Part shown: positions 1,495 to 55,839 of the stretch, one piece after another
Numbering within the stretch: position 1 is the first letter of the stretch
Layout of the letters: every line of letters begins with the position of its first letter
Assembly: GCA_041389985.1 (NCBI GenBank)
Contig: JAWKQS010000026.1
Location: 56,412-120,411, forward strand
Direction of reading: 5' to 3'
DNA length: 64,000 bases
Source: a bacterium
Lineage (GTDB): Bacteria; Myxococcota_A; Bradymonadia; UBA7976; UBA1532
Notes under the pieces: generated by a model
The model's database searches: none
What the model was told of the DNA's origin: nothing
Seen by the model: only the letters and a program-made list of their open reading frames with translations
Translations under genes and position numbers: made by a program

Positions 1495-1530
1495 GTAGAT
1501 TCGCACAGTTGCCTCCGAGGCCGCGGCGCG

Positions 1531-2342
1531 ATGTTCGGCTCTGGCGCGCACGCTGTCAACGCTGTGCCCACGGAGCGAGGCGCCGGCCGGATCCAGGTCC
1601 CACTCTGCGGCTATCGCGGGACGTCGTCCGCGACTATCATGCCGCCGATGAACGCACCGCAAATCCTCACCGCGAGCGTCGGCTTTCGCGGTCCGCACGC
1701 CCGCTACTTCGGCGAGCTCCCGCTGCTGGAGCTGCCGCCTCTCGATCACGTCCGCCTCGGCACCTTCACCCGGTGGCGCAAGGAGGTCCCCGAGGCCGCC
1801 CGCTTCGTGCCCCGAGTACCCGAGGCCGTCGCCCAGGCGGGGTTCGTCGGCCCCGAGGCCGCCGCCGGCTGGGAGCGCACTCGCGCCATCGCGAGCCGCC
1901 TGCGCGCCGACGTGGTCCGCTGCGCACGCCCTCCACGTTTCGGCCCACGGCCGAGAACCGCGCGGCGCTGAAGGCCTTCTTCGCCGAGCGGGCGGACGAC
2001 GCCTTCCGCGTCGCCTGGTGGGCCGACGGCCTCTGGGAGACCAGCCCGACGCCCGCGATGAGGTGGCCGCGGCGACCGGCCTCATCCCCGTGGTCGATCC
2101 TCGCCCTCGATGACGACGAGCCCTCCCGCCGGCGCCACGTTCTACTGGCGCCTCATGGGTCGGCTGGGCCTCTCTCGGGGCGCTACTCCGACCATGATCT
2201 CTACCGCCTGCTCGAGCTGGCTCAGGGTCGCGAGGCGGGCTTCGTCGTCTTCACCAGCGCTCGCATGCGGCCCGACGCCCTGCTTCGCGGGGATGGTCGC
2301 CGGCGGCGGGGCGGACTTCGGCCAGCTCGCCCGCGGCGATGA
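1531..2342 (+). CDS. DUF72 (UPF0759) family protein with an apparent frameshift at about 1900-1975
   Basis: The C-terminal half (frame of ORF 1509..2342) reads …NRAALKAFFAERADDAFRVAWWADGLWE…RRRHVLLAPHGSAGPLSGRYSDHDLYRLLELAQGREAGFVVFTSARMRPDALL, matching the DUF72 C-terminal consensus (…YVRLHGR…YdYsdeEL…vYvyFNNd…A.rNA). The N-terminal half sits in the frame of ORF 322..1971 (…GTFTRWRKEVPEAARFVPRVPEAV… resembles …etvekWvektPedFrFsvKaprtiTH…). The N-terminus is degenerate and the start is uncertain. Confidence 0.45.
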
Positions 2343-2520
2343 CGCGTTCGACGACTTCATGGATGGCATCGACGACGAGGACGACGAGGACGGCGAGGAC
2401 GAGGGCGACGACTCGATGGATGACTCCATGGACGATGACTCCATGGATGACGACTTCGACGACGAGGCCGACGATGACTCCATGGACGATGACTCCATGG
2501 ACGACGACTCCGAGAGCTGA
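2293..2520 (+). CDS. Small, very acidic repeat protein (76 aa) with DDSMDD-type tandem repeats, immediately upstream of a Ser/Thr kinase
   Basis: ATG at 2293 in the frame of ORF 2110..2520 gives MVAGGGADFGQLARGDDAFDDFMDGIDDEDDEDGEDEGDDSMDDSMDDDSMDDDFDDEADDDSMDDDSMDDDSES, ending TGA at 2518-2520 just 4 nt before the kinase GTG at 2525. It could also be a low-complexity tail in an alternate frame, so confidence is low. Confidence 0.3.
   Translation: MVAGGGADFGQLARGDDAFDDFMDGIDDEDDEDGEDEGDDSMDDSMDDDSMDDDFDDEADDDSMDDDSMDDDSES
2411..2512 (+). repeat. Tandem nucleotide repeat with a ~15-nt unit (gactccatggacgat and variants) encoding D-D-S-M-D repeats
   Basis: Direct reading of 2408-2515 shows gactcgatggatgactccatggacgatgactccatggatgacgac…gatgactccatggacgatgactccatggacgacgactcc. 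Confidence 0.6.
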
Positions 2521-2524
2521 GGCC

Positions 2525-3696
2525 GTGTCGAGCCGGCACCCGGCCGTGGTCGGCCCCTATCGCGTCGACGCGGTGCTGGGCGTGGGCGGCATGGGCGAGG
2601 TGCTGCGGGGGCAGCATGAGCTCCTCGGTCGGGTGGTGGCCATCAAGCTGCGGACCCGCACCCGGGGCGCCGAAGAGGATCGCCTGGCCGAGCGGTTTCG
2701 CCACACCGCCTGCCTGCAGGGCGAGCTGGATCACCCCGCCATCGCCCGGGTGTGACTACCTGGAGCTGCCGCGGCACCAGGCGCTCGTGCTCGAAGTACC
2801 TGGGCGGTGGGTGCATCGCCGATCTGCTCGCCCAGGGGCCCGTGCCCGTCCCGTCCACCGTCGAGATGGGCATCCGGGTCGCAGAAGCTTTGCATTACGC
2901 CCACTTGCGTGGGGTCGTCCACCGGGACATCAAGCCGGCAAACATCATGCTGGTCGACGCCGAGCGCGCCGACACCGTGCGCATCACCGACTATGGCGTC
3001 GCCAAGACCGCCAACCGCAGCCCCGATCTGACCGTCGCGGGCGCCAACGTGGGCACGGTCTGGTACATGTCGCCGGAGCAGTTCAACCACGAAGATCCCA
3101 CCCCTGGCTTCGACATCTACTCGCTGGGCGCGACCCTGTACGAGCTGCTGACCGGCACCATCCCGTTCGCGGGCAAGGACACCGCCGAGATCTTCCGGCG
3201 CTTCCTCGATGGGGTGCCCGCCCCCGCGATCACCGATCGCAGCCCCACCGTGCCGCCGGCCCTGGCCACCGTCGTCGAGGCGGCGATGGCCCTCGACCGC
3301 CACGCGCGGGTGCCGACGGCCGCCGTCCTGGCGCTCCTGCTGCGGGCCGTCGCGGAGCGGGAGGGGCTGGGCCTCGGCGATGCAGCCGCGCGCCGCCTCT
3401 TCCACCAGGCCGACGGGAGCGCCCTGCGGCGCATGGTGCAGCAGCTCGAGCAGACCGCCGCCGGTCGCCCGGTGGCGCAGGCGGTGACGGCGCTGGACCT
3501 GCGGCTCAACGGCGCGTCGGCCGTGACGGGCATCCACCACATCCTCACACCGGATCTGTCCGTCTCGGGGCTCGTCACGGCGAGCATGAACGTGACGTCG
3601 CTCCTCCCCATCGTCGGGGCCGCCGACGAGGCCGATCCCGACGAGGAGGATCACACCCTGGTCAGCATCCCGCCTCGCCTGCTGGACGAGGAGTAG
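2525..3696 (+). CDS. Hanks-type Ser/Thr protein kinase interrupted by two single-nucleotide insertions (~2753 and ~2791); either a pseudogene or a sequencing artefact
   Basis: Gly-loop LGVGGMGEV and the VAIK lysine lie in frame 2 (ORF 2339..2755). HRDIKPANIM, DYG and SPE lie in the frame of ORF 2752..3696. Deleting one t from gtgtgac (~2753) and one a from cgaagtac (~2791) restores …HPAIARVDYLELPRHQALVLEYLGGGCIADLL…, a canonical kinase subdomain IV-V. Confidence 0.85.
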
Positions 3697-53869: not shown

Positions 53870-53871
53870 CG

Positions 53872-54562
53872 CTACAGCTCTGCCCAGAGCCCGAAGCAGC
53901 CAGACGGCGCACAGCGCGAAGCGGCCCAGGCCCGGCAAGATGGTGGGGAAACCGCAAGCGGCCCCCCAGGGCGCGCGCCTGCGCGACGGCGTCGGCCATG
54001 GCCGGCACCCGGAAGTATGGCACCCACGCCGTCTCTTCGGTGGGCGCCTGGAGTGGAGCCCAGGGGCTGACCGCCGATCTGGTAGAGGTGCGCCTCCGCC
54101 GCGCTGCCGGGCGGCGCCTCCCGTTCCCAGCCGAAGACCGCCGGGTAGAACCGGCTGGCCTGCTCGGCGTCGGCGCTCTGGAGCTGGACGAACGCCAGGG
54201 CGCCGGGCGTCGTGGCTGGCCGCCCGGCGAGGATGCCGAGCGACCCGTCGGCGCCGTCGTCCAGCGAGGCGTAGCGCGCCCGGAGGGCAGCGTGACCGGC
54301 GGGACGAGGCCGCGCCCACCGTGGCGCTGCGCCTCGGCCCAGGCCTGGTCGGCGTCGGCGACGGCCAGGCAGGGCACCCAGGCGTCCGCCGCCGGCGACG
54401 CCACCAGCCACCCCACCGCCTCGTCGGCGGCCTGGATCGTGGCCGACGCCCCGCTCTCATGGGCCTCAAACGTCCACCCGAAGAGCGCCCCATAGAACGC
54501 CTGGAGGCGCCCGCCTCCCGGGTCATGAGATCGACGCGGACGAACCGACCGTGCGGGCTCAC
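53872..54562 (-). CDS. Two-domain VOC/glyoxalase-fold protein; four or more frameshifts
   Basis: GTG at 54562 gives VSPHGRFVRVDLMTREAGAS…, then by hand translation …FYGALFGWTFEAHE…GWLVASPAADAWVPCLAVADADQAWAEAQRHGGRGLVPPVTLPSG…, the second module …ALAFVQLQSADAEQASRFYPAVFGWEREAPP…HLYQIGGQPLGS…ETAWVPYFRVPAMADAVAQARALGG… and an end at …FGLWAEL* (53872). Confidence 0.55.
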
Positions 54563-55758
54563 TTCTTCTCCCCGAAGGTCTCGCGGGCGAGCTTCTCGGT
54601 CAGCGCGTGGATGAAGGGATCCGCCACCTGGTCATAGGCGTAGGCGCCGTCGTTCATGACCCGGTTGGGGTTGGCGAGCACGTTCACGGTGAGGAAGAAA
54701 TTTTCTTCGTCTTCGCATCGAAGACGAAGGCGTTCTCGATCCGGAAGCCGTACGCCTTGCCCGCCTTGCTGTAGACGATCCACCGCTCCGTGGGCCCCAG
54801 CCGCAGCAGGCTCCCCGAGCACCGGCTTGAACCGCCTGGGGTTGTACTTGTCCTCCGGGAAGACGGGATCCTCCGACTCGCCCGGCGCTGGCGCATCGCC
54901 TCCTCAGGAACGCGAGGTCCTTGTCCCCAGTTTGAAGCCCGGCACGCCCAGTGATCCACGTCGGGGCGCATGATCATCACCAGCATGTTCTGCAGGTCGA
55001 CCAGCGACATGTGCGGTTCTTGTCGGCGAACGACATGGGCGTCTCGACGCGCTTGCCGGTGCCGGGCTCCAGGTAGGCGTCGCCGGATCCGATGCCCGGC
55101 AACGCGGCAGCGCTCGAGCGCAGCGGCGGCCTCGGGCAGCGTGACCACGCCGTCCGGCGTTCCAGGTCGATGCGCGGCGTCTTGCGGTTGTCCGCGTCGG
55201 AGAGGCGCGACAAGCCGGTGCGTGAAGACCGTGCCGCTGAGCCCCGCCGCCTGCATGCGCCGGTTGAGGCCCTCATGGCCGGCCAGCTCGTACAGGCGGT
55301 TGAAGGCCTCGTTGCTGCTGACGATGGACATCTGGCGGATGAGGTGGCCGAGTGGTCACCCGCCCCCCGCCAGGTGGGACGGGTCATGGCTGAAGACCCG
55401 CTCGCCGGGGAGGACCGGGTGGAACGTGAGGGGGGTGTCGACGCCGACCTTCTTGCCCTGGGCGCGCAGCTCCGCGAAGCGCTGGAGGGCAGCCACCGCG
55501 CCGCAGGTCTTCACCGCCGAGGCGGGATAGAAGTACTCGGCGTCGACCCGGAACCCGTGTCTTTCCAGCACCTTGCGCCCATCGACCGTCTTCACGAAGC
55601 TCACCAGCACCTGCACCCGGTGCTCAGCGGCCCGGGCGGCGTCCTGGGCGATGGCGAAGGCGGGCCCCGTCATCCGGGACGGCAGGTAGTCGTCGTCGAA
55701 CGGGTGGGCGGCCGCCGGGCCAATCAGGGCGAGGGCGATCAGCAGGGAGGTACGCATG
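54559..55758 (-). CDS. Secreted class-A β-lactamase-fold serine hydrolase (SxxK, SxN and K[T/A]G motifs); two or more frameshifts (~54705, ~54990)
   Basis: Signal MRTSLLIALALIGPAAA (ATG at 55758). …YFYPASAVKTCGAVAALQ… (SxxK), …SIVSSNEAFNRLYELAG… (SxN), …RWIVYSKAGKAYGFRIENAFVFDAKTKKI|FFLTVNVLANPN… (compare W.VGDKTG..YG.rNDIAvi). The last shift coincides with an A/T homopolymer inside a palindrome (gaagaaattttcttc). Confidence 0.55.
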
Positions 55759-55839
55759 CGCGCCAGTCTTGGCCAGACCGCCCGGGAAGTCCAGCCATGC
55801 CCCGTTGACGGCTCTTGGGCGGTGCGGTACGTCGGCGCC

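Follow-up and report, generated by a model that had tools for sequence, protein, structure and literature searches.

Patchy frame breaks in a 64-kb stretch of a Myxococcota metagenome contig are very probably consensus errors

In the pseudogenes of Mycobacterium leprae and Sodalis, stops and deletions accumulate, dN/dS is relaxed and the lesions are common to strains. Sequencing errors interrupt genes as well: 454 and Ion Torrent errors produce ±1 frame changes, some of them in short runs, and unpolished or low-coverage Oxford Nanopore R9-type MAGs show indel-fragmented gene calls, a deletion bias, a partial association with homopolymers and a dependence on local consensus quality. The fragmentation of gene calls by indels in such nanopore MAGs is well documented (PMC9262707; proovframe preprint 10.1101/2021.08.23.457338), and the relatives of the organism studied here come from activated-sludge nanopore or hybrid projects (PMC9262707; PMC8518188; proovframe preprint 10.1101/2021.08.23.457338). 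The stretch of DNA analyzed here, hereafter the window, comprises 64,000 nucleotides of contig JAWKQS010000026.1. Similar to M. leprae and Sodalis, it contains many interrupted genes, but its dN/dS is not raised, it has hardly any stops and its lesions occur in one assembly only. It also has the ±1 frame changes, partly in short runs, of 454 and Ion Torrent data, whereas its errors are not restricted to runs, include multi-base indels and mismatches, and show no relation to run density. The fragmented gene calls, the deletion bias and the partial association with homopolymers of R9-type MAGs are found in the window, probably together with the dependence on local consensus quality. The window differs from such MAGs in its strong patchiness, its clean blocks reaching 16.8 kb, and in its many non-homopolymer and multi-base indels and clustered mismatches. 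The pattern looks more like a locally unpolished or mixed-strain consensus than like uniform residual homopolymer error.

Since the GC content of the window is 69–80%, third-position GC provides a strong frame signal. Reading frames were called with a codon-usage Viterbi model trained on the long ORFs of the window, and individual sites were placed by frameshift-aware protein-to-DNA alignment of the proteins of a relative, JACKDP010000002.1, onto the window. This contig of a Myxococcales MAG, whose sequence was corrected with short reads, is collinear with the window over 3.7–50.6 kb at 78–84% nucleotide identity and belongs to the HK-STAS MAG set, a hybrid nanopore and Illumina assembly (PMC8518188); a literature search on the accessions returned the HK-STAS paper only, and nothing for JAWKQU or GCA_041390005.1. 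Together, the two approaches detected 64 or more frame breaks, which affect no fewer than 16 genes; an earlier note on this DNA had reported 15 or more affected genes. Across the whole window, the Viterbi model revealed numerous changes of frame on the same strand with no stop in between, while codon bias is fully kept in every gene fragment. The switch regions are located at 1.66–3.69 kb, 4.6–11.9 kb (minus strand), 12.2–12.8 kb and 29.2–31.5 kb in the first half; at 32.8–34.3 kb (minus), 34.4–36.7 kb, 36.8–38.0 kb and 41.4–45.9 kb (minus) in the middle; and at 46.0–50.0 kb, 52.4–52.7 kb and 53.5–55.7 kb (minus) at the right end, the same intervals that the earlier note had listed as affected. 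Among the 48 frameshifts anchored to JACKDP010000002.1, 36 are net −1 and 12 net +1, about five of the latter being really −2 or −5; deletions predominate. The breaks are patchy, as had been claimed: their per-kb index of dispersion is 2.13 (over-dispersed, p = 1.6e-5), and the longest break-free gap spans 16.8 kb. Sites previously placed at ~29796, ~30132 and ~12995 were recovered at 29798, 30133 and 13000, respectively, by alignment to the proteins of the relative. For a further site, at ~54705, the evidence is a Viterbi switch at 54699/54700, which coincides with the proposed position.

At the left end of the window, a DUF72-like gene (1663–2282, plus strand) is split into five frame segments by Viterbi switches at ~1919, 2039, 2098 and 2171, each net −1. 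None of the single fragments has a Pfam match, whereas the join of all five matches positions 34–189 of the 217-position DUF72 profile at 41.6 bits. The adjacent Ser/Thr kinase gene (2518–3693, plus) has two net +1 shifts separated by ~40 nt, at ~2753 and ~2792, corresponding to the pair named earlier at ~2753 and ~2791. Its Pkinase profile is matched over 1–62 in frame +1 and over 82–253 in frame +0, and after repair over the whole of 1–253 at 143 bits. Pfam profile continuity alone carries the breaks in these two genes, because JACKDP010000002.1 is non-syntenic left of ~3.7 kb. Further downstream, a giant gene with sacsin-like and transglutaminase-core parts (4583–12026, minus), whose orthologue in the relative has Pfam SACS and Transglut_core matches, contains eight frameshifts (4796, 7566, 7679, 8142, 8237, 9759, 11555 and 11944). 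It is followed by a DUF2293 gene (12125–12790, plus) with three net −1 frameshifts (12153, 12371 and 12409) relative to an intact orthologue of 231 aa, and by the essential pheS gene for the PheRS alpha subunit (12933–14446, plus), which has one net −1 frameshift at ~13000 and 90% amino acid identity to an intact 503-aa orthologue in JACKDP010000002.1.

The next frameshifted gene encodes the first of two Ser/Thr kinases with an FGE-sulfatase domain (29188–31504, plus), with net −1 frameshifts at 29798 and 30133. The second (34371–36661, plus), orthologous to one 2271-nt ORF in the relative, is interrupted at 34458, 35048, 35703, 36188 and 36445. Between them, a gene for a Big_5-like secreted protein (32802–34283, minus; orthologue of 490 aa) has three net −1 frameshifts (33516, 33989 and 34027), and the same number and type were found at 37137, 37208 and 37315 in the gene for a GYF_2-domain protein (36764–38011, plus). 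The most heavily fragmented of the aligned genes, for a CHB_HEX_C_1/Fn3_assoc surface protein (41379–44104, minus), contains 13 frameshifts, at 41676, 41728, 41856, 41896, 42096, 42131, 43261, 43341, 43379, 43423, 43602, 43685 and 44046, and its orthologue is one 2739-nt ORF. An IgGFc_binding-domain protein gene (44177–45852, minus) has three frameshifts (44333, 44581 and 44670), and a DUF4953 metallopeptidase-like gene of ~4 kb (45992–50044, plus; orthologue of 1356 aa) has seven (46412, 46471, 46569, 46618, 47394, 48416 and 48496).

These patches are separated by clean sequence. A block at 13001–29797 (16.8 kb) with 12 genes, including pheT, a histidine kinase, FNR, metX, DUF1415, an exonuclease III-like gene, DUF790, XPB, an M74 peptidase and ackA-PTAC, has zero frameshifts relative to JACKDP010000002.1. 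A second one, at 56500–64000, contains M16-B, small proteins, an SDR and an MVP homologue. The genes previously described as intact, namely pheT, the histidine kinase, XPB, metX, the PPIase and the MVP homologue, are indeed uninterrupted. The best protein matches of four window proteins (XPB, FNR, M16-B and, implicitly, GATase) are 85–96% identical. Only two in-frame stops were found across 4.5–50 kb in the alignment to JACKDP010000002.1, and none occurs in the ~5,550 aligned codons of 29–50 kb. In the giant gene, an in-frame TGA at 7644–7646 lies within a small error cluster; we considered a real nonsense mutation and rejected it, a small compensated indel cluster between 7679 and 7566 being likelier. 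In the ackA-PTAC fusion gene (one 584-aa ORF in the relative), a TAC-to-TAG change at 27326–27328 (plus strand), within the RRYGFHG motif, is isolated inside the clean block, and the indel process does not account for this lone nonsense change.

The orthologous loci of the relative, a comparison that the earlier note had called for, are intact. Under the same Viterbi model, every orthologue in 53 kb of JACKDP010000002.1 is a single uninterrupted ORF, the sole exception being a linker rich in Pro and Glu within the giant gene. Lengths in the relative include 2279, 2271, 1226, 2739, 1668 and 4068 nt. The broken genes of the window have a median dN/dS of 0.22 (range 0.08–0.35; 12 alignments of 11 distinct genes) versus 0.19 for the intact genes (15 alignments), and are thus under normal purifying selection on par with the intact ones.

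L008 (JAWKQU010000120.1), another assembly of this population, matches the window at 99–100% identity wherever the sequence is clean, although its read set may not be independent of that of the window. All seven window breaks in the DUF4953 gene are intact in L008, which in turn has 18 private breaks where the window is intact (five in DUF4953, seven in CorC and six in M16-A); no frameshift is common to both assemblies in these three genes. In clean stretches, the two differ by 0–4 mismatches and zero indels per 500 nt (0–2 mismatches and no indels over 56500–58385, where L008 ends), versus 12–27 mismatches and as many as 21 indel events over the same length in noisy ones. In total, 178 indel events were counted versus 211 mismatches (~1:1.2), whereas a control comparison of the short-read contigs L003–L005 with JACKDP gave one gap versus 42 mismatches. 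The indel-to-substitution ratio between the window and L008 is unnaturally high. The breaks exist, are clustered and are private to the window's assembly.

These observations bear on whether the window records a genuine and recent mass pseudogenization, in which accessory genes were lost in patches and the frameshifts are true mutations. Many of the affected genes do look accessory (Ser/Thr kinases, surface proteins, the beta-lactamase-like gene and the sacsin-like giant), the housekeeping genes of the clean blocks are mostly intact, and the ackA codon looks like a true nonsense mutation. However, up to 13 frameshifts per gene coexist with the absence of stops in 29–50 kb, the dN/dS of broken genes equals that of intact ones, codon bias persists in all fragments, and the essential pheS is affected. 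Moreover, the near-identical L008 carries different lesions, and indels are about as frequent as mismatches instead of the 1:42 of real strain variation. We therefore regard pseudogenization as very unlikely; the earlier proposal of uncorrected indel errors in place of natural pseudogenes is supported by every comparison made here, namely the intact orthologues, the absence of all seven DUF4953 breaks from L008, the private breaks of L008, the indel-to-mismatch ratio, the equal dN/dS and the pheS hit.

The error spectrum separates the possible sources of such errors. Single-base indels fall in runs of three or more in 30–32% of cases versus 14% expected, and in runs of four or more in 13–15% versus 4.4% expected; examples of run shortening are C6 to C5 at 37137, GGGG to GGG at 46573 and CCC to CC at 47393. 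Some 40% of the single-base indels are not part of a run at all, such as a lone A lost at 46470 and a G inserted at 46619. Of the 178 indel events between the window and L008, 75 are 2–11 nt long, and mismatches co-cluster with indels. Within the window, break density is related neither to GC content (rho 0.13) nor to run density (rho 0.005), and both were rejected as causes of the patchiness; intrinsic sequence composition is not its cause. A search around the indels for a common sequence motif, for instance one of DNA methylation, revealed nothing beyond a ~2-fold enrichment of GGG-containing k-mers. The earlier description of the errors as homopolymer indels is therefore only partly borne out: the ~2-fold enrichment in runs of at least three agrees with it, whereas the off-run indels, the 2–11-nt events, the clustered mismatches and the missing link to run density do not. 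A source in homopolymer-length miscalls of flow chemistry (454 or Ion Torrent) only, one of the platforms suggested in the earlier note, would explain the 2- to 3-fold enrichment in runs and the resolved run shortenings, but the same off-run and multi-base indels, clustered mismatches and lack of relation to GC or run density speak against it. A contig of at least 64 kb from a metagenomic population of 72–78% GC would also be unlikely on such platforms. This explanation is very improbable, and a noisy single-molecule consensus is favored, because the errors are only partly homopolymeric and include multi-base indels and clustered mismatches.

The noisiest stretch, 51300–56450, differs from L008 by 12–27 mismatches per 500 nt, with indel events reaching 21 in the same length. 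It contains a HAD hydrolase gene (from 52368 onward, plus), a ThiF-family fragment (~53500–53700, minus), a VOC/glyoxalase-like gene (54073–54506, minus) and a Beta-lactamase2-like gene (54562–55745, minus) with at least six frame switches. Also in this stretch are CorC and M16-A, whose window copies are in frame and whose L008 copies are broken. About 55% of the CorC and M16-A mismatches between the window and L008 are at third codon positions, suggesting that some real strain variation is mixed in. Both assemblies are noisy across the same 51–56.5 kb, so that the noise here may have a cause tied to the locus, for example mixed strains, rather than random low depth. A metagenome scan with CorC gave L009 as the best relative, with only 67% identity and no synteny beyond CorC. 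The patches themselves could be real, reflecting localized indel-prone mutation or a very recent relaxation of selection on islands that vary between strains, with private frameshifts in co-existing cells and the assemblies representing different haplotypes; we consider this extremely unlikely. Programmed recoding, by ribosomal frameshifting or transcriptional slippage, has nothing in its favor except the frameshifts themselves and is effectively refuted by at least 64 sites that lack a shared slippery motif (GGG words being enriched only ~2-fold) and by the absence of any break conserved in orthologues or in the same-population contig.

Judging from the sequence comparisons above, the frame breaks are very probably errors in the consensus of a noisy metagenome assembly, and the genes are not decaying. 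According to this explanation, base-calling or consensus errors, mainly deletions of 1 nt, less often of 2 nt, and few insertions, would persist in the assembly of a Myxococcota population from error-prone data, most likely long reads. The consensus would be good or corrected in some stretches and uncorrected in others, the latter retaining one indel per 50–500 nt plus additional mismatches. The deletion bias and the non-homopolymer and multi-base indels fit a nanopore-type consensus better than flow chemistry, the platform itself being inferred. The patchiness may stem from insufficient depth in places, from polishing that failed or from a pile-up of reads of several strains.

The underlying genes would then be intact and functional in the organism and only fragmented by gene callers. 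We regard the pattern as an ordinary artefact, relevant to annotation and without new biology. Gene calls are unreliable in about half of the window (1.6–13.0, 29.8–30.2, 33.5–37.4, 41.6–48.5 and 51.3–56.4 kb), and automated annotation of the contig would report fragments and false pseudogenes. Estimates of the completeness and quality of the source genome would be biased, and any gene loss or novel short ORF claimed from this contig would be spurious. Usable proteins can be obtained by repairing the frames, with JACKDP010000002.1 as a guide or with frameshift-aware tools.

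Because many frames hold long open ORFs in the GC-rich DNA of the window (69–80% GC), codon usage was chosen to judge the coding frames. A seven-state Viterbi model (six frames plus non-coding, every position assigned) was trained on long unambiguous ORFs of the window, whose closest protein matches belong to Myxococcales/Myxococcota metagenome-assembled genomes (MAGs) and which carries a single tRNA-Ala. The resulting path contains dozens of same-strand frame changes with no stop or gap between them, and it switches within the intervals where the earlier note had placed clusters of ±1 frameshifts. 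The path is unbroken in the long genes that had been read as intact (pheT, histidine kinase, metX, XPB, PPIase and the MVP homologue), as well as in FNR, CorC and both M16 peptidases. The same model run on 53 kb of a collinear relative gave one frame per gene, and therefore the switches in the window are due neither to the method nor to high GC. Viterbi path, frameshift-aware alignment and Pfam continuity together give at least 64 breaks in ~16 genes, consistent with the previous figure of at least 15 genes.

The relative, of a different species, was the only one found by a scan of a genome collection with the intact 521-aa protein at 39343–40905 as query: JACKDP010000002.1 (hereafter JACKDP), from the MAG Myxococcales HK-STAS-MYXO-10. 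HK-STAS MAGs are the product of a hybrid nanopore and Illumina workflow (PMC8518188). Three JACKDP loci (L001, L002 and L006) are collinear with the window over 3.7–50.6 kb, with 78–84% nucleotide identity and a constant offset of ~596,980. JACKDP proteins were aligned one by one to the window by a dynamic programme permitting frameshifts. This comparison with orthologous loci, which the earlier note had proposed, found the JACKDP orthologues in single frames, whereas the window has 48 frameshifts spread over 11 genes; the 12 genes at 13.0–29.8 kb are free of them. The net shift is −1 in 36 cases and +1 in 12, and ~5 of the latter, each beside a lost codon, are in fact deletions of 2 or 5 nt. 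No in-frame stop occurs in ~5,550 aligned codons at 29–50 kb, and there are only two stops overall, a TGA at 7646, within a small error cluster, and a TAC-to-TAG change at 27326–27328 in ackA.

Several genes of the collinear region deserve separate mention. The TAC-to-TAG change is a lone lesion in the conserved RRYGFHG motif of an acetate kinase-PTAC (PduL-type phosphotransacylase) fusion gene (26888–28642, + strand; one 584-aa ORF in JACKDP), within a frameshift-free block of 16.8 kb, and could be either a genuine nonsense allele or an erroneous substitution. The giant gene at 4583–12026 (− strand; L002 2442–9892) codes for ~2,500 aa with a sacsin-type domain (PF25794) and a C-terminal transglutaminase core. 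Its JACKDP counterpart shifts frame in a Pro/Glu-rich linker (L002 ~8500–8570), where the window ORF 4548–8144 is continuous, so that JACKDP may have one frame error of its own. At 22970–25562 (− strand), a gene for an XPB-type helicase (XPB_DRD, ERCC3_RAD25_C) is the immediate upstream neighbour of one for a DUF790 protein (Bax1-like nuclease); both are intact, with 89–94% identity to JACKDP, and such pairing is known in archaea and actinobacteria. The pheS (503 aa) and pheT (601 aa) genes occupy 12933–16251 (+ strand), with matches to PhetRS_B1 (weak), B5 and tRNA_synthFbeta in the orthologue; in length and domains, the enzyme may resemble the archaeal/eukaryote type more closely than the one usual in bacteria.

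Synteny with JACKDP stops left of 3.7 kb. There, positions 1–62 of the Pfam Pkinase profile match in frame +1 (2518–2752) and positions 82–253 in frame +0 (2793–3693); repair via a 13-residue stretch in frame +2 restores a match over 1–253 (143 bits), which confirms the paired shifts at ~2753 and ~2791 noted previously. A DUF72 match in 1663–2282 was seen only after joining five frame segments, and a Beta-lactamase2 match (profile 18–212 of 214; 54.56–55.75 kb) only in a join of at least seven. For the HAD and ThiF genes, nothing beyond partial profile matches remains. The bacterial homologue of the eukaryotic major vault protein, MVP (61328–64000, continuing past the window end, + strand), is intact over 890 codons and matches MVP_shoulder (5–118 of 118) and Vault_3.

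A search with the M16 peptidase recovered a 278-aa fragment with 96% identity from JAWKQU010000120.1 (GCA_041390005.1; hereafter L008), which aligns with window positions 46355–58385. In the clean stretches at 49.0–51.0 and 56.5–58.4 kb, the two differ by 0–4 mismatches per 500 nt with no indels, and therefore represent one population, whereas in noisy stretches the same length contains 12–27 mismatches along with as many as 21 indel events. Totals are 178 indel events and 211 mismatches, compared with a single gap and 42 mismatches for three short-read control contigs against JACKDP. With JACKDP as the outgroup for assigning breaks, L008 is intact at each of the seven sites where the window copy of the DUF4953 gene (45992–50044, + strand) is frameshifted. 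Conversely, L008 has private breaks where the window reads through, five in DUF4953, seven in CorC and six in the M16 peptidase gene M16-A. No break is common to both assemblies, whose reads may not be independent. Plus-strand mismatches are asymmetric (94 C/T versus 36 G/A exchanges), a bias that the error process itself might have left.

Natural decay is expected to yield nonsense codons, relaxed selection and shared lesions, whereas the lesions here are private to one assembly and stops are nearly absent. Broken and intact genes have similar median dN/dS against JACKDP (0.22 and 0.19), up to 13 frameshifts fall in one gene whose fragments all retain full codon bias, and essential pheS is among the broken genes. 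These observations support the earlier reading of uncorrected assembly errors rather than pseudogenes. The number of sites, the lack of a common motif at the frameshift and indel sites, and the unshifted orthologues together rule out programmed frameshifting.

The more specific attribution to homopolymers holds only in part. Among single-base indels between window and L008, 30–32% fall in runs of at least 3 (14% expected) and 13–15% in runs of at least 4 (4.4% expected), a two- to threefold enrichment. Among the well-resolved cases of run shortening in the window are those at 37137 (C6 to C5) and 46573 (GGGG to GGG). However, ~40% of the single-base indels lie outside any run (e.g., a lone A lost at 46470 and a G inserted at 46619), lengths of 2–11 nt account for 75 of the 178 events, and mismatches group together with indels. 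A noisy single-molecule (nanopore-type) consensus fits better than flow chemistry, a platform that we infer from the indel pattern, the excess of deletions and the length of the contig (at least 64 kb).

Breaks per kb are over-dispersed (index 2.13, p = 1.6e-5), the widest break-free gap being the 16.8-kb block. Break density in the window correlates neither with GC (rho 0.13) nor with the density of runs of at least 4 (rho 0.005), which points to an extrinsic cause of the patches; this would be depth, polishing success or read mixture. The stretch at 51–56.5 kb is noisy in both assemblies, and ~55% of CorC and M16-A mismatches are on third codon positions, above random error and below pure natural variation. 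Both observations hint that strains may be mixed, and that low depth at random is the less likely source.

It is well documented that residual indels fragment the gene calls of nanopore MAGs with low coverage or without polishing (PMC9262707). The deposited calls of L008 are likewise fragmented (M16 peptidase, 162 + 278 aa; DUF4953, 232 + 531 aa; CorC truncated), and the protein set of this public MAG contig suffers from the same kind of unreliability as the gene calls of the window. The frame breaks are almost certainly an assembly artefact, and their interest is practical only.
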